Source: Nitrospirae bacterium JdFR-81 | Lineage (GTDB): Bacteria > Nitrospirota > Thermodesulfovibrionia > UBA6902 | Assembly: GCA_002011735.1 (NCBI GenBank) | Contig: MTOQ01000058.1 | Coordinates: forward strand, 91-64,090 | DNA length: 64,000 bases | Direction: 5' to 3' | Part shown: one piece after another, positions 811 to 58,829 of the stretch | How positions within the stretch are numbered: the stretch's first letter is position 1 | Layout of the letters: every line of letters begins with the position of its first letter | Notes under the pieces: model-generated | Told to the model about the DNA's origin: nothing | The model's database searches: none | Seen by the model: the letters and a program-made list of their open reading frames with translations, nothing else | Translations under genes and position numbers: made by a program

Positions 811-1296
811 CTATCTCCTTCTGGTTATCTCAATCCCCCACCCTCTTAATCTGTCAATGATGTGGCTTATGAGGGTGTCAAACTGCATCTTTATCTCTTC
901 TGAGAGTTCTGTCCCTGTCTCCAGGGACCCTGGCTGGATCCCTATGAGGCATATCTCTTTAAGGGGGAGCCCCTTCATCCTTATGGCAAAGAACAGGTCA
1001 GAGAGCCCTATCTGGTGGACCGATATCTTGGAGCCCAGGATGGCAGGGATGCTGTCGCCATCTATAAGCTTGATCGTTCCAGGTGGCTTCTTGAGGTCAA
1101 CCGCATCGATTATGATGAGCCTTTCGATATCTTCAAGGAACGGCAAAAGGTCAAGGCCCATTGTGCCACCATCAATGAGCCTCACGCTATCAGGGAACCT
1201 GTATCTCTCCTTCAGCTCCTTTATTACATGAACCCCAACCCCATCATCGCCTGTGAGCAGGTTGCCTACACCCAGTATGCCAGCCCTCACTCCCAC
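811..1296 (-). CDS. Hydrogenase maturation endopeptidase (HyaD/HybD/HoxM family)
   Basis: The N-terminal GVGNLLTGDDGVG motif and the ~160 aa size fit the family. It is the last gene of the hydrogenase operon. Confidence 0.8.
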   Translation of the reverse strand: MGVRAGILGVGNLLTGDDGVGVHVIKELKERYRFPDSVRLIDGGTMGLDLLPFLEDIERLIIIDAVDLKKPPGTIKLIDGDSIPAILGSKISVHQIGLSDLFFAIRMKGLPLKEICLIGIQPGSLETGTELSEEIKMQFDTLISHIIDRLRGWGIEITRRR

Positions 1297-1949
1297 TCTT
1301 TGCCTGTCACAAACTTATAGCCACTGAAGATCGAGCCCATCAGTCCGTTTCTCTCCTTCAGGTCTGCATACCATGCCATGTAGATGTGCAGGAGGGCATA
1401 TGCCAGAATGACATACATGCCAAGATGATGGAAGAGTCTTATGGTCTGAAGGTGCATCACACCTGTAACCCATCCACCAAGGAGGATCCATATCTTGCCT
1501 GAATGATTCAGTGAATACATGGCGAATCCAGAGACTATCTGGAAGAGGAAGATGAGAAAGAGGATGAAATACACAACCCCTGCCAGCGCGGTATGGCCGA
1601 CTGCATAGGGGGGCTTACGGATTATGAAGAGATAGAACTTGATGGCATCAGCAATGTCACGAAGCTTCCTTGATGAAAAAGGGAACCACACCCTGTAGCT
1701 TGCGTATCTGTTGCCCATGAACGCCCAGTAGAGCCTGATTATTATGCTCATCATAAAGGTATAGGCTGCTATGAAGTGGATGAACCTCATCCATCCCATT
1801 ATGTACTGTTTTGATGAGATTGCATGGATGAAGGGGTTGCCGATGTAAAAGCCTGTGATCGAGAGGGTCAGCACGCAGAGGACATTGATCCAGTGCGTAA
1901 ATCTGACAGGAAACTCCCATGCATATACCCTCAGTCTCTCATTCTTCAT
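1287..1949 (-). CDS. Ni/Fe-hydrogenase b-type cytochrome subunit
   Basis: A 220 aa polytopic membrane protein with conserved His residues, sitting immediately downstream of the hydrogenase large subunit (HyaC/HupC-like context). Confidence 0.75.
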   Translation of the reverse strand: MKNERLRVYAWEFPVRFTHWINVLCVLTLSITGFYIGNPFIHAISSKQYIMGWMRFIHFIAAYTFMMSIIIRLYWAFMGNRYASYRVWFPFSSRKLRDIADAIKFYLFIIRKPPYAVGHTALAGVVYFILFLIFLFQIVSGFAMYSLNHSGKIWILLGGWVTGVMHLQTIRLFHHLGMYVILAYALLHIYMAWYADLKERNGLMGSIFSGYKFVTGKEWE

Positions 1950-1961
1950 AAAGGCCTCCCT

Positions 1962-3710
1962 TCAGATCACCTTTATCCTTGTTACCTCCCTGCCCTCGGG
2001 GTCAAGGACATGCACTGCACATGCCATACAGGGGTCAAAGGAATGGACCGTCCTCAATATCTCAACAGGCTGTTCAGGATCTGCAACAGGTGTCCCGATG
2101 AGGGCCGCCTCATAGGGACCCCTCTGATCCTTTGCATCCCTTGGAGAGCCATTCCAGGTGCTCGGGACAACACACTGGTAGTTCTTGATCCTCCTGCCCT
2201 CTATACTCAACCAGTGCCCGAGGGCCCCCCTCGGTGCCTCATGAAATCCATAGCCCCTTGCCTCCTTTGGCCATTCTGATGGGTCCCACCCCTCTCTACT
2301 GTGAATCCTCAGGTCACCCTTCTTCATATTCTCTGCAAGCTGCCCAAGCCATACAGGTATCTGCTCTGCCGTTACAAGGGTCTCAACCCCCCTTGCTGCA
2401 ACCCTTCCAAGGGTTGAAAACAGGGCCGAGGGGCCAACCCCCAGTTTCTGAAGCACACTATCTATGACCTCTTTCACCCTCTTGTGTCCTGATGCATACG
2501 CAACAAGCATCCTTGCAAGTGGGCCCACCTCCATGGGTTTGTCATCATACCTTGGTGCCTTGAGCCATGAATACTTCCCGTCTGTGTCAAGATACTCATA
2601 AGGTGGTTGTGGTCCGGTATACCTATAATTGGTCTCACCATCCCATGGGTGCTTTGAGGTCTTATTACCATCTGAGTATTCATACCAGGAATGTGTCACA
2701 TATTCGGTTATCTTTTCATGATCCACCTTATGGACCTTCGAGAGGTCCTTATTCAGTATGATACCCCTTGGAAGCCACAGGTTCTCTGTATTGCTGACAT
2801 TATCATTCGGGAATTCACCGTATGCAAGAAAGTTTCCAACGCCTCCTCCATAGCCTGCCCATTCCTTGTAGAAGGACGCGACTGCGAGCAGATCGGGGAT
2901 ATAGACCTTCTTGACAAACTCCAGGGCCTTCTCTGCAAGACCTGTCATAAAGGCGATGCTTCCTGCATTCAGGGCATTCTGACTATTGGGATCAATAGGT
3001 ATGGACATACCACCAACGATATAGGTCTGTGCATGGGGATTCTTTGCACCAAGCAATGCCTGCATCTTTATGACATCCCTCTGCCAGTCAAGGGCCTCAA
3101 GGTAGTGTGCCACTGCCATGAGGTTTGCCTCTGGAGGGAGCTTGTACGCAGGATGACCCCAGTATGCATTTGCAAATGGACCAAGCTGGCCCCTCTCAAC
3201 GAAGGCCTTCAGTTTATTCTGCACGCCCTTGAAATACTCTGTGCTCGACTTTGGCCAGTCAGATATGGACTGCGCGAGTGAGGATGTCTTCTTAGGGTCT
3301 GCCTTCAAGGCACTTACGATATCCACCCAGTCAAGGGCGTGGAGGTGATAGAAGTGGATCACATGGTCTTGGACATACTGTATCCCAGTGATAAGATTCC
3401 TTATGAGTCTTGCATTGTCAGGGATGGTTATGTTTAATGCATTCTCGACCGCTCTCACCGAGGCGGTTGCGTGAACCGTTGTTCAGACCCCTCATATACG
3501 CTGGGTGAAATACCATGCATCCCTTGGATCCCTATTCTTGAGTATGAGCTCGATCCCCCTGAACATGGTGCTTGAGCTCCAGGCATCAACCACCCTTCCA
3601 CCCTCCACCTTTGCCTCGATCCTCAGGTGGCCCTCGATCCTTGTTATGGGATCAATGACTATCTTCTTAGCCAACTCATTCACCTCCCTTTTCTTCCTTT
3701 TTTCCTTCAA
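1962..3710 (-). CDS. [NiFe] hydrogenase large subunit with two in-frame TGA codons at the N-terminal Ni-ligand cysteine positions
   Basis: Track ORFs 3492-3710 and 1962-3458 share one frame. The reverse-complement translation reads ...AWYFTQRI-TGA-GV-TGA-TTVHATASVRAVENAL... where the consensus is RxCGxCxxxH. The minus-strand UGA codons correspond to plus-strand 'tca' at 3492-3494 and 3483-3485. The C-terminal DPCMACAVH motif is intact, and ITRIEGH and HFYHLHALDWVD are present. The true start may be the internal GTG near 3683. Confidence 0.8.
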
Positions 3711-4773
3711 ATATGGCCCTTCCTATACCATGGATCAGGAGACCTGCTGCGGTGGCCACTGCAAGGCCTGCCCCGACCTTATCCGCGGTGCTCTCCACCC
3801 CAAACCCTGGCGGATTTGGCAGCCTCTTATAAAATGGGCTCATCTTGTCCCAGAAGTATGGTTCAGCACACCCAACACAACCATGGCCTGCCTGGACAGG
3901 CCAGCTTGTGCCTTCGTTCCATTTAATGGTTGGACAGTTATGGAAGGTCTCGGGCCCTTTACAGCCCATCTCATAAAGGCACCATCCCCTTCTGTGTCCC
4001 TCATCACCCCATCTCCTCACAAACTGCCCTGCATCAAAGTGCGCCCTCCTCTCGCAATTGTCATGGATTCTCTTGCCATATGCAAAATAGGGCCTCCCCA
4101 GTTTATCGGTGAGGGGGAGCGACCCGAATGTTAAGTAATGAACAATACACGCAGTGAGATTCTCTACATTCATGGGACAACCTGGCAGATTGATCACCGT
4201 TGCATTAGGCACCGCCTCCTTGACGCCTACTGCACCTGTAGGATTTGGCTGTGCTGCAGGGATGCCGCCATAGGCAGCACATGTACCCACAGCTATTGTG
4301 GCAAGTGCATTGCCACACACCTCTCTTACGATCTCAACGGCTGACCTGCCTCCGATACAACAATACACACCCCCATCCTTCAATGGAATGGAACCCTCTA
4401 CCACCACAAAGTATTTACCCTTATTGTTTTTAACCACATCCATAAGTGACTTCTCTGCCTGAAAACCTGCAGGCGCCATGATGGTCTCGTGATAATCCAC
4501 AGAGAGGATATCAAGGATGATCTGTGCAACAGTGGGCTTGGTTGCCCTTAGGAGAGACTCTGTATCTCCGGCGCAGTCCTGAAACTCAAGCCACACAAGA
4601 TAGGGCTTTTTTGCATTGGTGAGTGCCTCTGCCATCCTTGGTGCAAATGAGGCAGGAAGGGCAAGCAGTGCACTCATTGCAGTGCAGAACTTCATAAAAT
4701 CCCTGCGCGATACCTTTTTGTTGAGGAAGGAAAGGGTCTCTGTGGAGGGGTCTTTCTCTAATACAGGGTCCAT
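3676..4773 (-). CDS. [NiFe] hydrogenase small subunit with twin-arginine signal peptide
   Basis: The SRRDFMKFC Tat motif is present. Cys clusters match small-subunit Fe-S ligands (CxGCxE, GCPP-like, HxxCPxxKW, CxGCxEP). The C-terminal TM anchor is typical of membrane-bound group-1 enzymes. Confidence 0.85.
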   Translation of the reverse strand: MDPVLEKDPSTETLSFLNKKVSRRDFMKFCTAMSALLALPASFAPRMAEALTNAKKPYLVWLEFQDCAGDTESLLRATKPTVAQIILDILSVDYHETIMAPAGFQAEKSLMDVVKNNKGKYFVVVEGSIPLKDGGVYCCIGGRSAVEIVREVCGNALATIAVGTCAAYGGIPAAQPNPTGAVGVKEAVPNATVINLPGCPMNVENLTACIVHYLTFGSLPLTDKLGRPYFAYGKRIHDNCERRAHFDAGQFVRRWGDEGHRRGWCLYEMGCKGPETFHNCPTIKWNEGTSWPVQAGHGCVGCAEPYFWDKMSPFYKRLPNPPGFGVESTADKVGAGLAVATAAGLLIHGIGRAIFEGKKEEKGGE

Positions 4774-4909: not shown

Positions 4910-5590
4910 TCAATCGCTGCCACTGCCGATCTCGTATCCAAGGCCAAAGAGATAGTGGAATGCCACATTGGGCACCTCTGCATGTCCATCCGCTATAGGG
5001 ACACGCATTGCATAGGATGCTGTCAGCTTTACCTCAAGCACCCCGAATAGCCCCCTCCATATATTGATCCTCTTGCCGAGCGCAAGTTGTGCCGTTGGCC
5101 CTGAGATGTAGAAACCATCAGGGAAGGACTCACCGTATCCCCTTTTTTCATCCCTGACCGTCGTCTCTGGATGCGTGAGGACGATACCTGCCCCAGCACG
5201 CCATATCAAATCATGGTATTCAGGCAATCTCCATGCCCTGTTGATAGTTATAAGGTTATATCCATGGGATATCTCGAAGTCCTGAACCTCCTCTGGGGGA
5301 TCCTTTAATATGATCTTTTCATGGACAAGTTCTATCTCCCATGCCCTGCCTTTATCCCATCTACCAACCCTCCACGCATAGTATGGTGAATTAAGGCCTG
5401 TCCACGCCTCTGAGTCGTATCTTGCGCTGTGGATCTCTATGGTCTCCTCACCTTCCTGCTTGATGGTCAGTGGTGTGGGAAGGTTGAATTGTTCCCCAAG
5501 AAAGACCTCAAAGGAATAGGTGCCTGATTCAGCAGGATGGGGGTAGATGAAGGAGCATATAAAGAGGATGGTTAAAAATACCTTTTTCAT
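4910..5590 (-). CDS. Hypothetical secreted protein
   Basis: It has an N-terminal signal peptide (MKKVFLTILFICSFIY) and no recognisable motif. Confidence 0.4.
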   Translation of the reverse strand: MKKVFLTILFICSFIYPHPAESGTYSFEVFLGEQFNLPTPLTIKQEGEETIEIHSARYDSEAWTGLNSPYYAWRVGRWDKGRAWEIELVHEKIILKDPPEEVQDFEISHGYNLITINRAWRLPEYHDLIWRAGAGIVLTHPETTVRDEKRGYGESFPDGFYISGPTAQLALGKRINIWRGLFGVLEVKLTASYAMRVPIADGHAEVPNVAFHYLFGLGYEIGSGSD

Positions 5591-16176: not shown

Positions 16177-16810
16177 CCATTAAAAGCCCGAAGATGAACC
16201 CGCCTATATGGGCAAACCATGCCACCCCTCCCTGACCCATGAACCCCTTGGAGAGTATTCCATTTATAAACTGGATCACAACCCATAACCCTATCACAAA
16301 GAACGCAGGCAGCCTCACCACCTGTATGAAGAAACCGAGGAAGATAAGGGTGTAGACCCTGGCATGGGGGAAGAGCAGGAGATATGCACCAAGTATACCT
16401 GACACCGCACCGCTTGCACCAACCATCGGTATCATCGAACCTGGCTCTGTAATGGCGTGGGCGTATGCAGCAACCACGCCACAGAGGAGATAGAAGATCA
16501 CAAACCTGATATGGCCGAGCCTATCCTCTATATTGTTCCCAAATATCCATAGATAGAGCATATTAATGCCAAGATGGAGGAGCCCGCCATGCATGAACAT
16601 GGATGTAAATATGGTGAGGAATGGATGTATAGGCTGGATATCCTTAAATGTAAGGATGAGACGGGGTATCGCACCATATGAATAGACGATCCTCCTGAGA
16701 TCAACAGGCGAACTCATCTGCCACAGGAATACGATGATATTCAGCGTAATGATACCAATGGTAAAGATTGGAAAGGTGCGGGTCGGATTGTCATCCTTAA
16801 AAGGGATCAT
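16136..16810 (-). CDS. Rhomboid-family intramembrane serine protease
   Basis: Six TM segments, the GASGAVSG catalytic Ser motif and the AHIGGF catalytic His motif. Confidence 0.8.
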   Translation of the reverse strand: MIPFKDDNPTRTFPIFTIGIITLNIIVFLWQMSSPVDLRRIVYSYGAIPRLILTFKDIQPIHPFLTIFTSMFMHGGLLHLGINMLYLWIFGNNIEDRLGHIRFVIFYLLCGVVAAYAHAITEPGSMIPMVGASGAVSGILGAYLLLFPHARVYTLIFLGFFIQVVRLPAFFVIGLWVVIQFINGILSKGFMGQGGVAWFAHIGGFIFGLLMVKSFVKKRRRVYL

Positions 16811-17268
16811 CTAAGGGCTTTCCTTATTTTATTTATATCCTCCTCTGACACCACCTCTATACCTGCCCTTGAAAGGACGGCAGTGGTGATGCCCACACCC
16901 CTGACCCTCCTTCTGCCCCTTTTTATGTATGTAGAGCCACAGGAGGGGCTACCATCCTTGAGGATTGCCTTCTTGATCTTGAGCAGGGAGGCCATCCTTA
17001 AGACCTCTTCGGCACCCTTTAAGAGATTATCTGTGTAATCAGTGCCTGTCTCCTTCCCGATCGCCCTTGCCCTTCTATCCAAGACAGAGCCACCATCCCC
17101 GCCGCTTATCTCTATGGCCTCTCGGGGTGTTGGAAGCCCCCCAAGCTGTTCAGGACACAGGGGTATTGCGTTTCCTCTTATAACAAGCTCCTGAACCCCT
17201 CTGTTACAGCAGTCCTTCCCATCATATCTCGTCCTTAGACCAGCAAGACAGGCACTCACGATATACAC
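16807..17268 (-). CDS. DUF523 (TudS-like) [4Fe-4S] protein
   Basis: VSACLAGLRTRYDG, CPEQLGGLPTPRE and DGSPSCGS are hallmark motifs of the DUF523 family. Confidence 0.6.
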   Translation of the reverse strand: MYIVSACLAGLRTRYDGKDCCNRGVQELVIRGNAIPLCPEQLGGLPTPREAIEISGGDGGSVLDRRARAIGKETGTDYTDNLLKGAEEVLRMASLLKIKKAILKDGSPSCGSTYIKRGRRRVRGVGITTAVLSRAGIEVVSEEDINKIRKALR

Positions 17269-20228: not shown

Positions 20229-20891
20229 CTAAAAAGCCCTGAACTCCTCTGCACCCAGCACAGGGTTTAATCTCAACACCTCCACCTTCACAAGGAATCT
20301 ATATCTGTCTGTCTTTATCTCCATGAATGAGGGATACCAGAAATCACCCTCCCTCTCTGGCCTTTGATAGGTTATATAAAGGGCTCTCCCGCCTACCTGT
20401 AGAGACTGCCTCAGGGGCAGGAGCGTCTCTTTATCAATACATATCTCCCTCCCCGCATCCCTGATCACATACACATCATCCCCCCTGTACATCTCTCCTC
20501 CCTGCACACCATCCCACCAGAAGACCACATTATAAAGTTCCTCTATAAATGGCCTCCATTCCTCCCCCACCCTTCCATAGAGCACATAAACATCATCCCC
20601 CTTGACGACCACATCCACTGTGAGCATCCCGAGGTTATAAACCCTCACATGTGCCATTCTGGGCCTCTTTATCAGAACAGAGGCCCTGCTATGGTAGAGT
20701 GGCCTCCCATCCCTCTCCACATCAATAACAACCACTGTCTTGACGGCGTCAACCCACCTTCCTGCCTCTGAGAGGACCTCACTGAGCGTAAGGTCCATGC
20801 CACCATAGATAGGGGGAGGTATGTGTCTGGGTGCACAACCCAGAAGGAGTATGAGGACACTAAAAAAATAGAATCTGAAGGGCCTCTTCAA
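20229..20891 (-). CDS. Hypothetical lipoprotein
   Basis: A signal peptide with an LLGC lipobox. Confidence 0.4.
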   Translation of the reverse strand: MKRPFRFYFFSVLILLLGCAPRHIPPPIYGGMDLTLSEVLSEAGRWVDAVKTVVVIDVERDGRPLYHSRASVLIKRPRMAHVRVYNLGMLTVDVVVKGDDVYVLYGRVGEEWRPFIEELYNVVFWWDGVQGGEMYRGDDVYVIRDAGREICIDKETLLPLRQSLQVGGRALYITYQRPEREGDFWYPSFMEIKTDRYRFLVKVEVLRLNPVLGAEEFRAF

Positions 20892-22406: not shown

Positions 22407-22455
22407 TCTCCATCTCCCTTCATCATTTAGTTGATGGAATGGAGGGTTATTTTGC
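22407..22455. terminator. Bidirectional terminator hairpin between tRNA-Met and the convergent ZraP-like gene
   Basis: An imperfect inverted repeat CTCCATCTCCCTTCATCA...TGATGGAATGGAG followed by a TTATTTTG tract. Confidence 0.4.
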
Positions 22456-22965
22456 CTTCTCGTATATCTTTCTCTGAAGCTCCTGGATCTCCTTCTGGAG
22501 TTTTATAACGGTCTCCGTCTTTGTCTCAGGGTTACGGAGGGCTTCATAATATTCAAAGGTCTTGCTATTGAGCTGCCTCCTGAGATCGACCGTTTCATCA
22601 AGAAACCTCTGGTACCTCTCTGCACCATAACCCCACATCATACCAGGCCCCATCATCCCGCATCCACCATAGCCCATGCCGGATCCCATCATCATGTTGT
22701 GCATCATCCCATAACCATAACAAGGGCATGTGCCATAACCCATCATCCCTGATCCCATACCATATCCACCCATCATTCCTGGCCCCATCATGCCCATCAT
22801 CCCATAGCCCATCATCTGATACGGACTATAGTAGGTAGAGGTGGTTTCCATCCCTTCGTGGCGTCCCTGACCGCCACCACTCATCATGCCTCCCTCCATA
22901 TGGGCGAGGCTATCTGTTGTCAGTACGGCCAAGACCAGCAATATGCTTAAAAGGATACCCTTCAT
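22447..22965 (-). CDS. Secreted Gly/Met-rich ZraP/Spy/CpxP-like protein (paralog of 396-773)
   Basis: A signal peptide and a long MMG/GYG tract with CPC/GGCG motifs. The C-terminal RFLDETVDLRRQLNSKTFEYYEALRNPETK tail is nearly identical to that of the first paralog. Confidence 0.6.
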   Translation of the reverse strand: MKGILLSILLVLAVLTTDSLAHMEGGMMSGGGQGRHEGMETTSTYYSPYQMMGYGMMGMMGPGMMGGYGMGSGMMGYGTCPCYGYGMMHNMMMGSGMGYGGCGMMGPGMMWGYGAERYQRFLDETVDLRRQLNSKTFEYYEALRNPETKTETVIKLQKEIQELQRKIYEKAK

Positions 22966-23312: not shown

Positions 23313-24215
23313 ATGATACCTTATATTATCGCCCTTATAATGGCCTCCCTTATCTCCCTGATTCCCCAATCTTCCCGTGCGGAGAAGGCAAAAACGATTG
23401 ATGAGCTTGTAAAGATGTATGATATCACCCGGTGTATAGGGTGCCACAGGGACAAGTATGAGGAGTGGAAGGACTCGACCATGGGCAATTCGGTTGTTGA
23501 CCCCCGTGTCCTGAGGGGCTGGAGGACGTTCATAAGGCTTGAGCTTGATCAGGAGCCCACCCTCTCAAGGAAGGATCTGACCATATGCCTCAACTGTCAT
23601 GTGCCCCAGATAAAGGACGCCACACCAGAACTTGTTGAGCATATCGCGGAACTCGTGATAATGGCCGTTGAGGATAAAGATGAGGGGAAAAGGGAATACG
23701 CAAGGAAGGAGCTTTCAAAGCTCAATCTTAACTGTCTCAGTTGTCATCATTTAAGGGCAAGGGGGTTTGAGGGTGAGCCAGAGGAGGGGGTGCTTTACGG
23801 CCCCAGGGAGATAACCTCCTCTCCACATGAGGGCATAGGCTTCAAGACCAAAAGGTCAGCCCTAATGTCAAAGTCCGATTTCTGTGCACAGTGTCATCAC
23901 TGCCCACCCAGCGTCCCGTGGGAACAGTGTCCGACACTTTATACCTCATATGTTGAGGGCTTCCTTGAGAAGGGCAGGAAGGAGACCTGTCAGGACTGTC
24001 ACATGAGGGATGTTGACAGATCAAAGAAGTCAGGAGGCTGGAACCACAGATTCTATGGACCTGATGATATCGAATTTCTCAAGTCCGCGATCACACTGAA
24101 CGTAAGGGCAAGGCCCACAAGGTATATTGATATGTACGAGGGCAGGTTCATTCCCGCAGTGGTCCTTGAGGTTGAACTCACAAATAATGCAGGCCATGTC
24201 ATGCCCCATGGCTGA
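23313..24215 (+). CDS. Pentaheme c-type cytochrome
   Basis: A signal peptide and five CxxCH motifs (CIGCH, CLNCH, CLSCH, CAQCH, CQDCH). It ends at a TGA that is in frame with the next ORF. Confidence 0.75.
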   Translation: MIPYIIALIMASLISLIPQSSRAEKAKTIDELVKMYDITRCIGCHRDKYEEWKDSTMGNSVVDPRVLRGWRTFIRLELDQEPTLSRKDLTICLNCHVPQIKDATPELVEHIAELVIMAVEDKDEGKREYARKELSKLNLNCLSCHHLRARGFEGEPEEGVLYGPREITSSPHEGIGFKTKRSALMSKSDFCAQCHHCPPSVPWEQCPTLYTSYVEGFLEKGRKETCQDCHMRDVDRSKKSGGWNHRFYGPDDIEFLKSAITLNVRARPTRYIDMYEGRFIPAVVLEVELTNNAGHVMPHG

Positions 24216-24218
24216 GCA

Positions 24219-24536
24219 GTGATGCCAAGGGCGGTGCTGGAGGTCACCGTGAAGGATGATAAAAAAGAGGTGGTGTTTGCAAGAGAGCACGAGTTTACGG
24301 TCAACGATCTCTATTTTAAGGGTGGGAAACAGGTTGCAATGGCAGAATGGGATATAACAGCCACTGAACACTTTGACCTCGGTGTCAGACCCATTGAGCC
24401 ATATAAGTTTACATATGTAATACCACTAAGCCCTGACACGGCCTCTATTGAGGCAATCGCCCAGTTCAGATATCTCTATTCCCGTGATAAGACATTCGAT
24501 GTTCAGAGGGCCTCACATAAAGTCGTCATAGAGTAA
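24219..24536 (+). CDS. Hypothetical protein, in frame with and possibly a C-terminal continuation of the cytochrome
   Basis: It shares the frame of 23313-24215, separated only by TGA and GCA. Its N-terminus (PRAVLEVTVKDD) repeats the cytochrome's C-terminus (PAVVLEVELTNN). Confidence 0.4.
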   Translation: MMPRAVLEVTVKDDKKEVVFAREHEFTVNDLYFKGGKQVAMAEWDITATEHFDLGVRPIEPYKFTYVIPLSPDTASIEAIAQFRYLYSRDKTFDVQRASHKVVIE

Positions 24537-24595: not shown

Positions 24596-25027
24596 ATGGA
24601 AGAGATCGGGATAGTAAAGAGTGTTGACGGTGCCATGGCAAAGGTGGTCCTGGCACGCAGGAGCAGCTGCTGTGAGAGCTGTGAGAAGGATGTCTGCGAC
24701 ATCCCCGAAGAAGGGGTTGAGACCGAGGCCATAAATCAGGCAGGTGCAAAGGTCGGACAGAGGGTAAAGGTGGTGATGAAGCCCTATACCTTTATAAAGG
24801 GTGCTCTCGTCCTGTATCTCTTCCCAGTGGTCGCCCTGTTCTTGGGTGCCTTTGCCGGAAAGGTGTATCTGAGCAGGCTATTTGAAGGGACGGACAGTGA
24901 GCTCCTTGCAGCAGCCGGTTCACTCATCGCGTTTTCTGTCTCGCTCTTCTTCGTAAAGATAATCTCAGGGAGGATGTCTAAGAAGACGGAATACAAGTCC
25001 GTTATCGAATCTATTGTGGAGGGATGA
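24596..25027 (+). CDS. RseC/MucC-family protein (SoxR-reducing-system-like)
   Basis: An N-terminal Cys cluster (SCCESCEKDVC) followed by two TM helices, with an RseC-like size and layout. Confidence 0.5.
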   Translation: MEEIGIVKSVDGAMAKVVLARRSSCCESCEKDVCDIPEEGVETEAINQAGAKVGQRVKVVMKPYTFIKGALVLYLFPVVALFLGAFAGKVYLSRLFEGTDSELLAAAGSLIAFSVSLFFVKIISGRMSKKTEYKSVIESIVEG

Positions 25028-35358: not shown

Positions 35359-35525
35359 ATCCCGTGCCTCAGTAATTCGTAAAACACTTTTACCCCTGTA
35401 TTATTTAATTATATATGCCTTTACAGAAAAAGCAAGAAGATTTTTCCAGGCCTTTCCACCCCTTGATAAAATCCTGCCTTAAAGGTTATAGTAGCAGGAT
35501 TTAAAATAAGAATGGAGGTTATACA

Positions 35526-35867
35526 ATGTTTCCAGATATAGCATATGCAATGGCAGGCCCTGGAGGTGGTGGTGAGGCAGGGCCACAGGGAGGACTTGCT
35601 GCATTCTCCTCCTTCCTTCCCCTTATCCTGATATTCGTCATCTTCTATTTCCTCCTCATAAGACCCCAGTCGAAGAAGGCAAAGGAGCACAAACAGATGC
35701 TCGAGAGTCTCAAGAAGGGAGACAAGGTTATGACCAGTGGTGGCATACTCGGTGTTATAGAGGACATCGATGGTGATATAGTGACCTTGAAGGTGGGGGT
35801 AAAGGACGATGTAAGGATAAGGATAAACCGGAATTATATCGCTGCCTTGAGGGGTAAGGAGGGATGA
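35526..35867 (+). CDS. yajC: Preprotein translocase subunit YajC
   Basis: A single TM segment and the [32 protein letters not shown] signature, upstream of secDF. Confidence 0.8.
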
Positions 35868-37477
35868 AGAAGAGGTTCTTCTGGAGGGTCCTTGCCATCT
35901 CGGTTGCAACGATCCTTTCAATAATCCTCTTCCTCCCCACCACCAGGCTACGCCCTTCCCTTCCTGAATGGTTGCAGAAGTATGGCCTCACCCTTGGATT
36001 AGACCTTCAGGGTGGTATCCATCTTGTCTATGAGGTGGACGGTGACAAGGCGGTCGATATCACCACAGAGCGTATAGCCATGAGTCTGGAGAATATCCTC
36101 CGTGACAGGGACATCAAGGCCGAGATAAAGAAGGAAGGCCTTGATATCAGAATCACCCCTGCTGATGAGAAGATAAAGGATGCCGTGGCGGATAATTATC
36201 CAAACCTTGAACTCATAAACCAGTCTGGAGAAACGCTCGTCTACCGTCTGAGTGACAGGGAGATCAATAATATAAAGAGACTCGCCGTTGAACAGGCCCT
36301 TGAGACCATACGTAACAGGGTTGACCAGTTCGGTGTTGCGGAGCCGACCATACACACACAGGGGTCAAACGAGATAGTCGTCCAGCTTCCAGGGATAAAG
36401 GATGCAAAGAGGGCCATAGCACTTGTGGGTAAGACCGCTATACTGGAGTTCAAGCTGGTCGATGATGAATCACCCATTGCTGCACAACTGCCTGAGACGA
36501 TCAGGGCAGGTGAGGAGGAGAAGCTGATCAAGGAGTTCAGCGATAAGATCCCAGAGGATGATGAGATCCTCTTTGGAAGGGTGGTTGAAAAGGGCACCGG
36601 AAGGGTCTTTAAAAGGGTCTATCTATTGAAGAAGCAGACCCTCATGACCGGTGACTTTATCAAGGAGGCAAGGGTCAACATAGACCAGAGGTTTAATGAG
36701 CCATATGTTGGCCTCTCCTTTAATTCTGCTGGGGCAAAGCTCTTTGAGGAGATCACGGCAAACAATGTAAAGAAGAGGCTCGCTATAATACTTGACAACA
36801 ATGTCTATTCCGCACCAGTGATACAGGAGAGGATAGCCGGTGGGAACGCACAGATAACGGGAACATTCACCATGGATGAGGCAAAGGACCTTGCCATAGT
36901 CCTGAGGTCAGGTTCTCTGCCCGCACCGCTCAAGATGCTCCAGAATGTTACAGTGGGCCCATCCCTTGGGAAAGACTCCATTCAGGCAGGCATAAAGGCA
37001 GGTATCATAGCTTCGCTTCTTGTCATAGTCTTCATGGTAGTCTACTACAGGCTCTCAGGTGTCATAGCAGATTTTGCCCTTGTCCTCAATATCATATTCC
37101 TCCTTGGTGTGCTCTCTGCCTTCAGGGCAACCCTCACGCTGCCTGGCATAGCAGGGATAATCCTTGCCGTTGGTATGGCCGTGGACAGTAATGTCCTCAT
37201 GTTCGAGAGGATAAGAGAGGAACTGAGGCTGGGGAAGACACCAAGGGCAGCCATTGATTCAGGCTATGACAAGGCATTCTGGACGATCTTTGACTCCCAT
37301 GTAACCACATTGATCACAGCGGTCGTCCTCTTCCAGTTCGGGACAGGTCCGATAAAGGGGTTTGCAGTGACCCTTGGCTGGGGTGTGTTCATCAACCTGT
37401 TCACAGCGCTCATAGGGACAAAGACCGTCTTTGACCTCATAATCTCGAGAAAGGAGCTGAAGAGGCTTAGTATATGA
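35864..37477 (+). CDS. secD: Protein translocase subunit SecD
   Basis: A large periplasmic domain and a C-terminal 6-TM bundle. It overlaps yajC and secF by 4 nt each. Confidence 0.9.
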
Positions 37478-52885: not shown

Positions 52886-53451
52886 ATCCACTTAATAACC
52901 GGTGGCTTCTTCTCGGGTGGCTCTGGAAACTGCTCTGGATAGCCAAAGACGATAGGGCCAAATATCTTCTCATCATCCTTCAACTCCAGGGCCTTCCTTA
53001 TCTCTTCGTCCTCTGTGACAAGGGAGCCAAAATAGACCCAGCAACTCCCTATCCCCAGGGATCGGGCAGCAAGCATCATGTTCTGGCACGCAAGGGGGCA
53101 CGATAGGTCTGCATATCTGCCCCTGCCTATGACGAATATGATCACAGGTGCAGAATAATAGATGGGGTCTTCCAGCTCCTCATACCGTTTCATGATCAAT
53201 TGATACCTTTCAGGGTTCGTCCTCTTTACGTCCTCAAGGAGCCTCTTTGCATTCGGGATGGCTGTGTCAAGCAGTCTCTTGTGGAAGGCATCATCCTCCA
53301 CCACCACAAACCTCCATGGCTGACTGTTCATACCTGATGGGGCCTGATTGCCTGCCTCTATTATCTTCATGATGATCTCCCTTGGGATCCCCTTCTTCTG
53401 GTATGACCTTACAGATCTCCTCTCGGATATCGTCTTCAACACCTCATTCAT
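52882..53451 (-). CDS. Nitroreductase-family flavoprotein
   Basis: RRSVRSY and [10 protein letters not shown] motifs, ~190 aa. Confidence 0.75.
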
Positions 53452-56400
53452 TCCCCGAACCTCCTGACTCCTGCTTTTTGATATATCTTATAAATGCCTC
53501 GACCACCTGTGGGTCGAACTGTGTGCCCGCACACCGTTTGAGCTCGGATATCGCATACTCTTTACCAAGGGCACTCCTGTAAGGCCTGTCCGATGTCATT
53601 GCGTCATATGCATCTGCAACACACAGTATCCTTGCAAGCAGGGGTATCTCCTCACCCCTGAGCCCTTCTGGATAGCCTGTGCCATCCACCCTCTCATGGT
53701 GATACTTGAGCATAGGGATGATATTCTTGAGCTGTCTGATGGGCTTCAGGATCATGGCACCCCTTAAGGGATGTTCCCTTATATGCTGTGTCTCGTCACT
53801 TGAGAGGCTCGCTGCCTTGTCGAGTATAACATCATAGGTGCCTATCTTCCCTATGTCATGAAGGAGCCCACCCAGCTTCACCATCTCCTCCATCTCCTTC
53901 CCAAGACCCATCTCCCTGACAATGGCAAGGGCGTATCTTGTCACCCTCTCCGAGTGACCCCTTGTCCATGGCGACTTGGCATCCAGCATCGATGCAAAGG
54001 AGGTGATGATGTTTATCACAAGCTGCTGGAGGTCTTCGTATAGACTCGCATTCTCAAGGGCAACCGCAATCTGCGACACTATATCCTCGGCCGTCCTCAG
54101 GTTTGCAGGTAAGAATCCAGCAGGATGGAGGGAGCATATGTCGATTATCCCTATTGTGCGGGCCTTCCTGACAAGTGGGAGGACTATGGCTGACTGGATA
54201 CCTATGTCTATCAATGCCTCCTGATAGGGGGATTTCTCGGCCTCGGAGGAGAGGTCTGAGATAAAGAGGGGTGATTGGTTGTGCTCAAGGATATCCACCT
54301 GAGTGTCTGTGAGCTGGAACTCCTTTGATTTGAGGCTGCCAACACCCCATTCGGCTATCACCTTGTATTTCTTCTTCTCTTTAAAGAGCACGGAGACCCT
54401 GTCACAGGGTATAACCCTGCTTATTATCGCAATGGACGTGTTGAGAACGGTCTCCCTGTCAACAGCGGAGAGTATCTCCTTGTCTATCTCTGCCATCGCC
54501 TTTATGGTCTCAACCTTATGTGAGAGCTCTATAAACCTCTCTGTGGACTCCTTGTAGAGACGGCTGTTGTGGATCGCCACGCCCAGCCCATCTGACAGTC
54601 CCTTAAGCAGGGCCCTCTCCCTCTCACCCAGCGGGCCTTGCTCTTTAAGGCCTCCCACTATGAAGCCCTTTACCCTGCCAGCGATGAATATCGGCATGAG
54701 CATGGCACTCTTTATCCCGAATGTCTCTATAAATTCCCTGGAGACAAGTTCAGAACCCTCAAGATCCTCGATAAGCAGCCCCTCTCCATTTAATAGCCTC
54801 TTGATGGCAGGAAAGTCGCCCTCTTTGAATAGCTTCGTCTTTGTGAGCCTCTCCTCTGTATAGCCGAGTCCATATGTGCCAGAGACGACAAAGGCATGGT
54901 GTTCTGTATCATAAAGGAGGATGCCGAGTATATCCAGCCTTAGATAGCCAGGGACTATCTCTATCACCTTTCTTATAAGCTGCCTCTCATCAAGTATGGT
55001 GTTCAGTGTCTCTACTATCTTGAGGAGCGAATGGGATATCTCGCTCTCCTCCCTGATCTTCTCCTCTGCCTTCTTAAGCTCTGAGATATCCTTTGCCACA
55101 TGGACAAAACCTGTCACATTGCCGTCTTTGTCCTTGATGGGCGAGACGGTAACAAGCAGGGGGAAGTCAAAGTTTGGATAGTGCCTCTCTGCGGTGATCG
55201 TCTCTCCAAGGTCCCTTGCCTTGAGGATGAGGCATTCAGCGTCCGATCCCCTGTCCCTCTGATAGACCTCATAACAGTGCTTTCCGATCAGCTCCTCTGG
55301 CCTTAAACGGAGGTGATTGGCAAGGGCCTTATTGGCCCTCATAAACCTCAGGTTCTTGTCAAAGACAGAGATAAAGTCAGGTATGGCATCAAAGGTCTCT
55401 CTCCACTCCTGTGCAGCCCTCCTGAGGATGGCCTCTGCCCTCTTCTGCTCTGTGACATCCCTGAATATGCCCTGTGTGGCTATCACCTTCCCGTCCTTCA
55501 TCCTGCACGAGATATTGCCCAGGACATCGATACGCCTCCCATCCTTTGTGATGAATGTAGCCTCTACATTGTTCTGTGGCTCTCCTGATAATACCCTTTT
55601 GAAGACCTCCCTGCAGTGCTCAACGCTGTCAGGGTGGAGTATGTCAAAGATGGTGAGCCCCTTCAGGTCTTCCTCCTCATATCCGAGGGTCTCAAGCCAT
55701 GACTTATTGGCAAATATGATCCTCCCCTCGATATCAACACTGTGGATCATGTCATGGGCGTTGTCAAACAGATCCTTGTACCTCTGTTCAGACTCCCTCA
55801 GGGCACTCTCCATCCTCCTCTTCTCGGTCACATCATGGAATACCATAACCACACCGATGGTCTCACCGTGTCTGTCCTTGATCGGGGCACCGCTATCCTC
55901 AATCGGTATGTGCCTGCCATCCCTTGAGATCAACACGGTATGGTTTGCGAGGCCAATGACCACACCCTCCTTCAGTATCCTGCCCACAGGGTTTACTGCC
56001 TTCTCACCTGTCAGCTCATTTATGATATTAAAGACCTCTTCAAGGGCCTTGCCCATCGCCTCGGACTCCTTCCATCCAGTAAGGGCCTCTGCCTGAGGGT
56101 TCATGAATATCACCCTTGCATCCCTGTCAGTGGCTATAACCGCATCACCGATGCTCCTGAGGGTCACCCTCAACCACTCCCTTGACTCCCTGAGCCTCTC
56201 CTCCATCTCGTGCTTATAAAGGGTGGTCTCTATGGTGCTGCGGAGTTCCCGCTCGTCAAAGGGCTTTATTATATAGCCAAAGGGCTCTGTGAGCTTTGCC
56301 CTCTCAAGGGTCTTCTCATCAGAGTATGCGGTAAGATATACCACAGGGATATTGAGTGATGAGCGGATGTCACCTGCCGCGTTGATGCCATTCACCTTGC

Positions 56401-56578
56401 CACCAAGCACGATATCCATGAGCACAAGGTCAGGCCTCAGCTCCCTCGCCACCCTGACCGCCTCCTCTCCTGTTGAGACAACGGCAGGGACCTCGTAACC
56501 CATCTCCTCGAGGCTCACCCTTATGTCCTCGGCCACAATGGCCTCATCCTCAACAACAAGGATCCTCCTCTTAGCCAT
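53444..56578 (-). CDS. Response-regulator receiver, multiple PAS, GAF, HD-GYP phosphodiesterase
   Basis: An N-terminal REC domain (VVEDE...DLVLMD), at least three PAS repeats, two GAF domains and a C-terminal HD-GYP (HDIGKIGT...[14 protein letters not shown]). Confidence 0.8.
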
Positions 56579-56678: not shown

Positions 56679-58829
56679 TTATATCCTTTTTTCGTATCTA
56701 ATTTCCTGAAACCTGATCCTGAATGCTGTCCCACCAGCCCTGTCAAGCTCTATCGTGCCCCTGAGCTGACCCTCTGTCAGTGTGGTAACCAGCCTCAGGC
56801 CAAGGGAGTCCGTCCCTTTTATATCCAGCCCCTCTGGTATACCAACCCCGTTGTCACTGACCGTGAGTTCAAGACCCTCAACCTGCCCCTCCGGGAGCAT
56901 GACCCTCTTAAGCCCAACCCTCACCTCTCCACACCTGCCATCAGGGAATGCGTGTTTGAGGGCATTTGAGACAAGCTCATTGATGATCAGACCGCATGGG
57001 ACGGCTGTATCAACCCCGAGGCGTATATCTGCTATATCCATCTCCACCTTTATCCTCTCTGTGTTTATCCCGTAGGCCCTGTATAGCCCCCTCACAAGGT
57101 CACGGGTATATTCATTAAAGTCGATATGTGCAAGGTCCCTTGACCTGTAGAGCTTCTCATGCACAAGTGCCATCGACTTTATCCGGTTCTGACTCTCATT
57201 GAGCAGCTCCATATGGTGAGGGTCCTTTAATTTGCCTGACTGGAGCCTGAGCAGGCTTGAGATCACCTGCATGTTGTTCTTGACCCTGTGGTGTATCTCC
57301 CTTAAGAGGACCTCCTTCTCATGGAGGGATGCCCTTATCTGTTCCTCGGCCCTCCGGCGCTCTGTGATATCACGGATGACGGCTATAAATATATCACCCT
57401 CGGATGTCCTGGCATGGGAGACCGCCAGCTCGACAGGGAACGTCTCACCATCCCGATTCAGTGCATATATCTCCAGCCGTTGATTGAGGAGCCTGCCCCT
57501 GCCTGTCAGCAGGAAGTTCCTGAGCCCCCTTGTGAGTGCTTCACGAAACTCCTCGGGCACTATAAGGTCTACCACATGCCTGCCCAGCGCCTCCTCCCTC
57601 TTCCAGCCGAACATCCTCTCTGCCTGCTGGTTCCAGGTGTTGATGACCCCCTCTGAGTCGATCGTCACGATGGCATCAAATGCACTCTCAACTATCATAC
57701 GGGTCTTCTCCTCTGCCTCCCTCCTTATGGCCCTCTTGATCTCCTCACGTGCAGCAACCACCTGCTCTGTAAGGTGTCTGAACCTCTCCTCAAGGATGTA
57801 CAGTTTGTCTCCCTTTTTAACACCCTCCCTTGGCGTGCCAAGTGTCTTTTCAGAAAACTCGGATATACGATGTGTGAGCAGCCTTATGCGGTGGGTGATA
57901 AACAGCATCAGGGAGGTAAAGGAGAGGATAAAGACAACGGCGATGACCGCTATGCTCTGTCTCTCCCTTGAGACAACCTCCTCTGTGAGCCTCTCCACCT
58001 CTTCCATTGATAGCATGGATGCAAGGCTTATGGTGAGGTCTGATGCACCATAGTCAAAGAAGGCCTTGCCTATCAGCAGATACCTCTTTTTGATCGCCTT
58101 AAGGGGGGTGCCTGCAGGCACATCCCTGAGATTACTGCTTGTGAGTATGGCGGGTGGGTTCTCAGATGTCAGAAGTGCGGTTACATGCCCCTTTCTTATA
58201 ATATGGCCAAGGGATGCTATGAGAAATTCATCATCTATCGGTGTCGCAAACATCAGGATTGCCGTTATCTCATCTCCCCTGTAAAAGGGAGAGGATGTCA
58301 GGAGATAGGGGATGCCGTCAACGTCTGTCATATAACTCTGCCACCTGCTCCTGAGGAGCATGAGGCTGGAGGGTCTGAGCAGACCATCGGGTATCTTCTC
58401 ATTGCGTGATATGTAGACCTCCCTCACCCTTCCCCACCGATCAAGCAGCAGGCTGAAACGAGGGTTTACGAATGTCCTGAGCATCGAACGGGGAGGGAAC
58501 CACGGTGGTAGAGACCGGTGGTATCTGATCTCTATTGTGTCATCCTCAGACCAGTTCACTGATCTGACATAATCGTCAAAGTTCTTCAGCCTCACAAATG
58601 CCCTCACCGACTGGCTATGGAGCTTTATATAACGGTCAAGACGGAGTCTGTCCTCCACAGCCTTCCTCGATAGCTCTGCCTTCAACTTCTCCAGGAATAT
58701 CTCCCTCACCCTTCCTGTGTGGTGGATATCAAGGATGATCCATACAGAGAGGCCGATAATCACACACACAGAGACCATCTTGAAGGTGAGCGATAGACGA
58801 CGGAGTAGGCTCTGGATTGTGGACTTCAT
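56679..58829 (-). CDS. Sensor histidine kinase (TM, HAMP, PAS, HisKA_2, HATPase_c)
   Basis: The HisKA_2 H-box HHRVKNNMQVISSLLRLQ and HATPase N/G boxes (NELVSNALKHAF, DNGVGIP). Confidence 0.75.
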   Translation of the reverse strand: MKSTIQSLLRRLSLTFKMVSVCVIIGLSVWIILDIHHTGRVREIFLEKLKAELSRKAVEDRLRLDRYIKLHSQSVRAFVRLKNFDDYVRSVNWSEDDTIEIRYHRSLPPWFPPRSMLRTFVNPRFSLLLDRWGRVREVYISRNEKIPDGLLRPSSLMLLRSRWQSYMTDVDGIPYLLTSSPFYRGDEITAILMFATPIDDEFLIASLGHIIRKGHVTALLTSENPPAILTSSNLRDVPAGTPLKAIKKRYLLIGKAFFDYGASDLTISLASMLSMEEVERLTEEVVSRERQSIAVIAVVFILSFTSLMLFITHRIRLLTHRISEFSEKTLGTPREGVKKGDKLYILEERFRHLTEQVVAAREEIKRAIRREAEEKTRMIVESAFDAIVTIDSEGVINTWNQQAERMFGWKREEALGRHVVDLIVPEEFREALTRGLRNFLLTGRGRLLNQRLEIYALNRDGETFPVELAVSHARTSEGDIFIAVIRDITERRRAEEQIRASLHEKEVLLREIHHRVKNNMQVISSLLRLQSGKLKDPHHMELLNESQNRIKSMALVHEKLYRSRDLAHIDFNEYTRDLVRGLYRAYGINTERIKVEMDIADIRLGVDTAVPCGLIINELVSNALKHAFPDGRCGEVRVGLKRVMLPEGQVEGLELTVSDNGVGIPEGLDIKGTDSLGLRLVTTLTEGQLRGTIELDRAGGTAFRIRFQEIRYEKRI

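Follow-up and report, generated by a model that had tools for sequence, protein, structure and literature searches.

We report that a [NiFe] hydrogenase large-subunit gene from Nitrospirae bacterium JdFR-81 carries in-frame UGA codons at both of its N-terminal nickel-ligand positions. The gene lies on the minus strand of a 64,000-nucleotide (nt) stretch of contig MTOQ01000058.1 (positions 91 to 64,090), hereafter called the window, whose own numbering is used throughout. Judged by comparison with related sequences, the class to which it belongs, that of Group 1 uptake hydrogenases whose N-terminal Ni ligands are both specified by recoded UGAs, is real and conserved and is widely annotated wrongly; we regard the recoding of both UGAs as almost certain. 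The elements of the gene are as follows.

1962-3674 (minus), [NiFe] hydrogenase large subunit; 570 codons, two of them in-frame UGAs that are read through, and a TGA stop
3495-3497 (minus), AUA (Ile60), directly 5' of UGA1
3492-3494 (minus), UGA1, codon 61, equivalent to Desulfovibrio gigas Cys65 and HybC Cys61, terminal Ni ligand
3483-3485 (minus), UGA2, codon 64, equivalent to D. gigas Cys68 and HybC Cys64, Ni-Fe bridging ligand
3472-3485 (minus), small hairpin UGAAC-AACG-GUUCA (UGAAC-NACG-GUUCA in the family), containing UGA2
3448-3467 (minus), hairpin ACCGCCUC-GGU-GAG-A-GCGGU, resembling a selenocysteine insertion sequence (SECIS), apical loop GGU at 3457-3459
2010-2036 (minus), C-terminal Ni-binding motif DPCMACAVH, all Cys (TGT/TGC codons)
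1965-2009 (minus), 15-residue C-terminal extension directly after DPCMACAVH, removed by the maturation protease

Two open reading frames (ORFs) had been called here, 3492-3710 and 1962-3458. An earlier note made from the letters of the window (the original prediction) had placed them in the same frame, and the minus-strand reading confirmed this: the codons cgt ATA TGA ggg gtc TGA aca acg gtt cac (R-I-*-G-V-*-T-T-V-H) give the motif QRI-UGA-GV-UGA-TTVH. The likely start is the TTG at 3672-3674, 1 base past the small-subunit stop and 10 nt past a GGGAGG, which yields MAKKIVIDP..., homologues beginning MAKIVIDP or MPKIAIDP; the TTG at 3710 was set aside because the homologue N-termini fit the one at 3672-3674. 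Both the L1 (RxCGxCxxxH) and the L2 (DPCxxCxxH) motifs are present and aligned, and both Cys codons of L1 are UGA. In an ungapped alignment with the D. gigas enzyme (1frv/2frv, offset +4), UGA1 and UGA2 fall at Cys65 and Cys68, which we take from established structural knowledge to be the terminal and the Ni-Fe bridging N-terminal ligand, respectively. Homology to solved structures at E<1e-200 fixes the ligand positions. For L1 to supply its metal ligands, the UGAs must be recoded to selenocysteine (Sec) or Cys. These findings bear out the original prediction in its claims that both N-terminal Ni-ligand Cys codons are in-frame TGAs, that the Sec candidates are the terminal and bridging Ni ligands, and that the C-terminal motif is all-Cys.

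Conservation of the UGA pair and the downstream hairpin

We assembled 160 related loci (window included) from genome and metagenome collections and read their codons directly. At the two positions, 41 loci have TGA..TGA (UxxU), 15 TGY..TGA (CxxU) and 104 TGY..TGY (CxxC), and none has TGA..TGY (UxxC); that is, the UGA1 column is TGA in 41/160 and the UGA2 column in 56/160, and the C-terminal DPCxxC is present in 160/160. The same two codons are TGA in 40 further independent contigs from different projects and phyla, a pattern therefore far beyond chance. UGA types occur in Nitrospirota/Thermodesulfovibrionales, Thermodesulfobacteriota, Chloroflexota (Anaerolineae, Thermoflexus) and Methylomirabilia, and both UGAs are retained down to ~70% protein identity across the four phyla; the genes of Geobacter, Desulfuromonadales, Acidobacteriota, Roseiflexus and Deferribacter are of the Cys type. 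UxxU carriers include the MAGs BDTR01 (Bacterium BMS3Bbin08), MTOU01 (Nitrospirae JdFR-85), CAYMML01 (Thermodesulfovibrio sp.), JBBISG01, JBGQEL01 (Methylomirabilia) and JAPYWT01 (Thermoflexus), and long contigs such as Ga0256830_1000016. In 51 distinct UGA-type sequences, codon changes at the G, V, T, T, V and H around the UGAs are exclusively synonymous, which indicates that the region is translated. Among the best 120 protein clusters, 62 (81-95% identity) are fragments of 498 or 504 residues that start just past UGA2, and the relatives called in this way originate from JGI, ENA, NCBI and Logan assemblies. The earlier view that the two TGAs reflect neither decay nor chance thus stands, on the strength of the 40 other contigs, the synonymous-only changes and the hairpin described below.

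The protein tree places some Cys-type sequences among Sec-type ones. L091 and L092 are nested inside a UxxU clade and look like recent Sec-to-Cys reversions. L119 is sister to the UxxU locus L043 and L021 is basal to the Sec-rich clade; both retain the hairpin, and their placement suggests recent reversions as well. All four are useful as natural controls.

The hairpin at 3448-3467 has 8 bp with one bulge, a GGU loop and a folding energy of -10.1 kcal/mol, and its loop begins 32 nt past UGA1 and 23 nt past UGA2. It is found at nt 27-47 from the U of UGA1 in all UGA-type sequences, with the loop starting at nt 35 in 47/51; most of the other UGA types form a 6-7 bp stem around a C-GUG-A/C loop. 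RNAalifold, run on the 51 UGA-type sequences, predicted the same helix independently. Pairing across the helix was 80.1% of cells, compared with 72.2% after shuffling (0/500 shuffles as high), and 31 double-sided changes were counted, a number reached in 0/500 shuffles. The covariation score was 0.201, versus 0.080 for shuffled sequences and at most 0.093 for helices slid by 1-3 columns. The pair types were AU18/UA14/GC7, GC33/CG7 and CG47/UA3, and the stem variants AGCUC/GAGCU, UGCUC/GAGCA, GCCUC/GAGGC, GCUUC/GAAGC and the bulged window form each occur in more than one clade of the protein tree, which points to several independent compensatory events. The residues encoded by segment codons 10 and 14 covary accordingly in the alignment (Cys..Ala, Ala..Gly, Ser..Ala, Ala..Ser). 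When the same helix was imposed on 99 Cys-type sequences, both measures were at background (pairing 45.5% vs 44.8%; covariation 0.094 vs 0.088).

Published criteria for a bacterial SECIS (bSECIS) are a loop of 3-9 nt, a stem of at least 4 bp, a G in the first two loop positions, a distance of 16-37 nt from the UGA and a minimum free energy (MFE) of -7.5 kcal/mol or lower (PMC13188914). The window hairpin agrees with all of them for both UGAs, which answers the proposal in the original prediction that a bacterial SECIS be sought downstream of each; the same is true of 46/51 UGA types, compared with 12/99 Cys types (p=1e-21). The loop codon specifies Val in 51/51 UGA types vs 27/99 Cys types (p=2e-20), the Cys types having mostly Ile. 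In four Cys-type Nitrospirota relatives with ~80% identity the hairpin is degraded, at -1.5 to -7.5 kcal/mol vs -10.1 in the window.

Several observations weigh against a SECIS function. The 60-nt fold of the window is not unusually stable (z=+0.41 vs shuffles), and local MFE does not differ significantly between the UGA and Cys classes (p=0.077); folding energy was accordingly discarded as a non-discriminating test, and covariation and positional criteria were used in its place. No Rfam SECIS family matched, and permissive E-values returned only noise at both recoding sites. The 12 Cys-type sequences noted above also pass the bSECIS filter, and the sequences are phylogenetically related, so that the shuffle statistics overstate their independence. 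The spacing between UGA and SECIS is tightly constrained in E. coli, and we know of no experimental precedent for one hairpin acting on two UGAs 9 nt apart. Weighing both sides, we infer that the hairpin is the SECIS for the large-subunit UGAs, that it would be read by SelB and that it may serve both.

The account that we favor, and consider moderately probable when taken as a whole, is that of a Group 1 uptake enzyme recoded through a SECIS, with Sec at both N-terminal Ni ligands. The large-subunit mRNA would be read through the UGAs at residues 61 and 64 by SelB/SECIS recoding, with the single 6-8 bp stem-loop in the codons for residues 70-76 (A-T-A-S-V-R-A-V) acting as SECIS for both UGAs, whose distances (32 and 23 nt) are within the 16-37 nt allowed for bacterial elements. 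The predicted product is a 570-residue precursor with Sec as the terminal (C1) and the bridging (C2) N-terminal ligand and Cys as the C-terminal pair, and it would be matured normally, by Hyp-dependent NiFe insertion, HycI-type C-terminal cleavage and Tat export with the small subunit.

Probable UGA recoding in the organism and the residue inserted

Two negative results weigh against Sec decoding. No sel genes or tRNA-Sec were found in the 64-kb window (ARAGORN, Rfam at gathering thresholds, Pfam on 50 ORFs), and neither selA, selB or selD (tblastn with E. coli SelA, SelB and SelD) nor tRNA-Sec was found in 1.49 Mb of related flanks, the tRNA scan covering 55 UGA-type loci. Weak SelA/SelB/SelD tblastn matches, in Cys-type loci only, were rejected as probable HypE or GTPase paralogues. 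The carrier genome presumably encodes Sec machinery outside these regions; Thermodesulfovibrio/Nitrospirae genomes with selC*, a gene for a UGA-decoding tRNA-Cys, were reported by Mukai et al. to have complete selABCD as well (PMC5389517).

A scan of the window for in-frame TGAs identified a second recoded gene.

23313-24536 (plus), MccSep-family pentahaem cytochrome c, in-frame UGA at 24213-24215

It had been called as a 300-residue ORF (23313-24215) with an unannotated tail. The predicted protein contains CIGCH, CLNCH, CLSCH, CAQCH and CQDCH, followed by VELTNNAGHVMPHG-UGA-AVMPR and 106 more codons, and thus has the five CxxCH motifs and the conserved Sec/Cys site GH..P.G-U of the MccSep family. 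In this family, described in August 2026, Sec was demonstrated by mass spectrometry in the Geobacter sulfurreducens peptide VEMTNHAGHSIPDGU, the protein being a polysulfide reductase in Geobacter (PMC13510729). The UGA of the window gene (VELTNNAGHVMPHG-U) falls at the same column as the Geobacter Sec. This column is Cys in full-length homologues, many Nitrospirae homologues are truncated there, and the six relatives that we fetched have TGA in 6/6, with a covarying proximal hairpin. In-frame UGAs at Cys/Sec columns occur in these two window genes only, and the MccSep gene provides independent evidence that this organism recodes UGA. A distal hairpin past the MccSep UGA with a GUGAA loop (+36, as for the hydrogenase loop) was considered as evidence for long spacing and rejected, as it is not conserved in the six relatives. 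The MccSep gene is followed by an RseC/MucC gene at 24596-25027, an arrangement kept in the relatives L168 and L169.

The alternative that survives best keeps SelB/SECIS recoding and assigns the decoding of one or both UGAs to a selC*-type tRNA-Cys (tRNA-ReC), so that the mature enzyme would be an ordinary all-Cys or a single-Sec (CxxU-like) protein made via the Sec pathway. Three facts speak for it and against Sec at both sites: selC* tRNA-Cys genes of Thermodesulfovibrio/Nitrospirae are functional in opal decoding (PMC5389517), and tRNA-ReC is present in ~56% of genomes with UxxU Group 4 hydrogenases vs ~2.3% of those with other Sec types, Takano et al. flagging that either or both UGAs may be Cys (PMC13582414). 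In our loci, position 1 alternates between UGA and UGY more than position 2 does (15 CxxU, 0 UxxC). If UGA were read as Cys, however, the change of a single base to UGY would do no harm or would even help; both UGAs are nonetheless kept over the full range of identity and phyla given above, a dedicated hairpin and the AUA context at UGA1 are maintained, UxxU is commoner than CxxU (41 vs 15), and no tRNA-ReC gene was seen in the tRNA scan of the window. On balance we consider insertion of Cys unlikely, though a serious contender. At least one of the two positions is probably Sec; the chance that both are is close to even, perhaps a little below. The original prediction of a candidate di-selenocysteine enzyme thus stands as to two conserved UGAs that appear recoded with a covarying hairpin, and is unproven as to Sec at both, given that tRNA-ReC may supply Cys. 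We infer Sec rather than Cys as the inserted residue, along with any catalytic consequence; peptides spanning the large-subunit segment ICGVCTTVHATASVR would gain +47.94 Da per Sec.

A further alternative is itself a variant of the favored account, since it still involves recoding: the distal hairpin (3448-3467) would act on UGA2, and the small hairpin (3472-3485) together with AUA on UGA1. Among the UxxU genes, 36/40 have AUA before UGA1, against an expectation of 7.3 based on their own Ile usage, and the set includes ~14 GC-rich genes in which AUA makes up 0-6% of Ile codons. AUA occupies this codon in 2/15 CxxU loci (L087, inside a UxxU clade, and L096, sister to the UxxU locus L147) and is rare in CxxC. 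As a caveat, three close Cys-type Nitrospirota relatives also have AUA, and those lineages use AUA often; the idea of AUA as a universal signal specific to UGA1 is weakened by these three, and the signal is convincing only in GC-rich lineages. The small hairpin is complete in 27/38 UxxU, 6/13 CxxU and 39/99 CxxC sequences; the difference between UxxU and CxxC is significant (p=0.001) and that between UxxU and CxxU is not (p=0.18). The second Thr codon after UGA2 is ACG in 36/38 UxxU vs 6/13 CxxU, and the conserved MccSep hairpin has its loop ~11-13 nt past the UGA, which is the spacing of the small hairpin from UGA1. Set against this, 4/5 pairs of the small hairpin are fixed by the conserved peptide U/C-T-T-V-H, which makes the hairpin nearly unavoidable, and the free pair is lost in GC-rich UxxU genes, where GUG is used. 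Neither of the first two positions of the small-hairpin loop is a G, and the distance of 11 nt falls short of the 16-37 nt consensus. Furthermore, a ribosome with UGA1 in the A site would cover the small hairpin, given the footprint of the mRNA channel. We therefore judge separate elements improbable, clearly more so than decoding by tRNA-ReC. As a side observation, UGA1 followed by GGN creates a Shine-Dalgarno-like GAGG 5-6 nt upstream of UGA2.

It is very improbable that the locus represents a pseudogene, a gene split in two or an artefact of assembly, with the UGAs as real stops and an N-terminally truncated or non-functional product. Gene callers did split the large subunit, and Sec machinery is not visible in the window. 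The identical two-codon pattern recurs, however, in the 40 other independent assemblies; there are no other frame disruptions, changes near the UGAs are synonymous only, the covarying hairpin is tied to the presence of UGA, and the accessory genes are intact. Moreover, a 498-residue product would have only two Ni ligands out of four and would also lack the L1 His. Genome-wide reassignment of UGA, of the kind known from some candidate phyla (to Gly or Trp, for instance), is the least probable of all, for its only support is the two in-frame UGAs, the carrier phyla use the standard code, in-frame UGAs are confined to Cys/Sec columns of two genes, and TGA ends 19 of 52 long window ORFs (TAA 17, TAG 16), including both hydrogenase subunits and, in the adjacent small subunit, at the point where homologues end; this stop usage indicates the standard genetic code and turns the earlier statement that wholesale reassignment was unlikely into an exclusion.

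Operon, hydrogenase type and other genes of the window

The large-subunit gene is the second in an operon ordered small subunit, large subunit, cytochrome b, protease. Its other members, all on the minus strand, are listed here.

3676-4773 (minus), small subunit with Tat signal SRRDFMKF and C-terminal membrane anchor (PF14720/PF01058)
3676-3678 (minus), TGA stop of the small subunit, genuine
1287-1949 (minus), cytochrome b subunit, Ni_hydr_CYTB (PF01292)
811-1296 (minus), HycI-family maturation endopeptidase (PF01750)

The accessory genes are intact, in agreement with the earlier description of a full operon comprising a Tat small subunit, cytochrome b and a maturation protease. The best match of the large subunit in the PDB is the membrane-bound hydrogenase of A. 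vinosum (3myr_B; E=9e-224, 748 bits, residues 1-555), followed by Hyd-5, D. vulgaris MF (DvMF), D. gigas, Hyd-1 and Hyd-2. Classical [NiFeSe] structures scored ~313-328 bits with partial coverage, compared with 570-748 bits for standard [NiFe] enzymes. The alignment with known large subunits that had been proposed as a check thus upheld the UGA columns and left classical [NiFeSe] at only ~320 bits. These matches and the gene content identify an intact Group 1 [NiFe] uptake hydrogenase, periplasmic and membrane-bound, whose sequence places it outside the classical [NiFeSe] clade with C-terminal Sec.

The taxa of the relatives and the gene order indicate that the hydrogenase probably belongs to HydDB Group 1f. 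The closest PDB entry, 3myr, is a Group 1e enzyme. Enzymes of Geobacter, Deferribacter, Acidobacteriota and Roseiflexus with the same gene order have been labelled 1f (PMC6896113, PMC5900883, PMC6776052). The Cys-type relatives, at 67-75% identity, come from the same taxa as described Group 1f enzymes (G. sulfurreducens Hya, Acidobacterium ailaaui, Roseiflexus, Deferribacter HyoSLE), and the order small subunit, large subunit, cytochrome b, protease is shared; the described members differ in being all Cys-type. The literature calls Group 1f 'polyphyletic and poorly studied' and connects it with oxidative-stress defence in Geobacter and high-affinity H2 uptake in Acidobacterium.

The small subunit has a feature of its own. 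At residues ~66-72 (QDCAGDTES), C-x-x-D/N replaces the C-x-x-C that is standard in Group 1 at the proximal iron-sulfur cluster. Among 125 loci in which the motif was found, the residue is D in 59, N in 49 and C in 17, independent of Sec/Cys type, which suggests an unusual proximal-cluster ligand in this family, probably Group 1f. The Asp/Asn was also considered as a Sec-linked change and rejected, since it is family-wide.

Elsewhere in the window, a 2-thiouracil desulfurase family protein (PF04463) is encoded at 16807-17268 (minus), adjoining a rhomboid protease gene and with no obvious link to the hydrogenase. The Pfam scan, which left out the ORFs 53444-56578 (1044 aa) and 56679-58829 (716 aa), gave no match at E<=1e-3 for 59989-62838 (plus, 949 aa), 4910-5590 (minus, 226 aa), 20229-20891 (minus, 220 aa), 22447-22965 (minus, 172 aa) and 35421-35921 (minus, 166 aa).

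Relation to known hydrogenases and significance

Reviews of 2022 and May 2026 describe Sec in hydrogenases only as C-terminal UxxC and restrict [NiFeSe] enzymes to sulfate reducers and methanogens. Takano et al. (Front Microbiol, Sept 2026) found N-terminal UxxU, CxxU and UxxC in Group 4, calling UxxU 'previously unrecognized', in a survey from which Groups 1-3 were filtered out (PMC13582414). For CxxU in Group 1, the same paper refers to two sequences in Baltazar 2011. A description of UxxU in a Group 1 enzyme was not found in the literature searched, subscription papers being outside its coverage. The original prediction, which did not recognise the arrangement in any described enzyme, is overtaken as regards the N-terminal forms known in Group 4, and holds in that UxxU in a Group 1 enzyme appears to be new here.

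The resemblance to the Group 4 enzymes is close. In both, the Sec candidates are in the N-terminal RxCGxC, UxxU included; one SECIS-like hairpin, its loop carrying a conserved G, follows downstream; this G belongs to a Val GUG codon and is lost in Cys types by a Val-to-Ile change; and the distribution of Sec and Cys types is a mosaic, with sequences all derived from metagenome-assembled genomes (MAGs), found by UGA read-through and subject to the same tRNA-ReC caveat. The Group 4 enzymes differ in being cytoplasmic-facing, multisubunit and energy-converting, whereas the one described here is a Tat-exported, cytochrome-b-linked Group 1 uptake enzyme. The two kinds come from different phyla, Nitrospirota not being among the nine of the Group 4 survey, and the present class seems to be far more abundant, with 62 of the best 120 protein clusters here compared with 47 sequences in all there.

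With the classical Group 1a [NiFeSe] hydrogenases (Desulfomicrobium baculatum, D. vulgaris Hildenborough Hys) the enzyme shares the periplasmic Group 1 heterodimer core, selenium as a direct Ni ligand, as proposed here, and decoding by UGA plus a bacterial SECIS. The classical enzymes have one Sec, at the first Cys of the C-terminal DPCxxC (a terminal ligand), whereas the present enzyme has its UGAs at the two N-terminal ligands and only Cys in the C-terminal motif. The CxxU pair of Baltazar 2011, as described by Takano et al., has a predicted Sec at the bridging position, like our 15 CxxU relatives, and differs in having one Sec only, at position 2.

In E. coli Hyd-1 and Hyd-2, the four Ni ligands have each been exchanged for Sec, one at a time, in every case giving a matured, active enzyme (Evans et al. 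2021, PMC8020662; Evans et al. 2024, PMC11212049). The Hyd-1 variants C76U and C79U retained 3% and 13% of native activity, with a lower Michaelis constant (KM) for H2 and worse O2 tolerance (PMC8020662), and C61U and C64U of Hyd-2 were active (PMC11212049). These engineered enzymes carry Sec at exactly the positions discussed here, in Group 1 hydrogenases that mature and oxidise H2, and show that N-terminal Sec chemistry is viable; they differ in being single substitutions made by UAG suppression, whereas the natural enzyme would carry both in a co-evolved protein. By analogy with them, any benefit of N-terminal Sec may differ from the O2 tolerance tied to the classical Sec position.

Dozens of large subunits (from Thermodesulfovibrionia, Anaerolineae and related MAGs) have been deposited in a 498-residue form that is missing two metal ligands; as a result, they are under-counted or put in the wrong class when hydrogenase diversity or selenoproteomes are surveyed. 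The UxxU, CxxU and CxxC series, at 70-95% identity, constitutes a set of natural controls, and the closely spaced UGA pair offers a test system for the reach of a bacterial SECIS and for sharing with tRNA-ReC. Should both positions be Sec, the enzyme would be a natural example of a two-selenium [NiFe] site, which engineering has so far approached one position at a time and with poor activity, and it would show what the surrounding protein must do for such a site to work; possible gains include a lower KM for H2, a different catalytic bias and a different sensitivity to O2 or sulfide. To our knowledge, no enzyme with Ni(Sec)2(Cys)2 coordination has so far been characterised. We propose only tentatively, and at less than even likelihood, that a widespread Group 1 class has such a site, encoded by two UGAs 9 nt apart that are decoded from one SECIS with the aid of a dedicated 5' context (AUA-UGA); if true, this would represent a new mode of tandem selenocysteine insertion.

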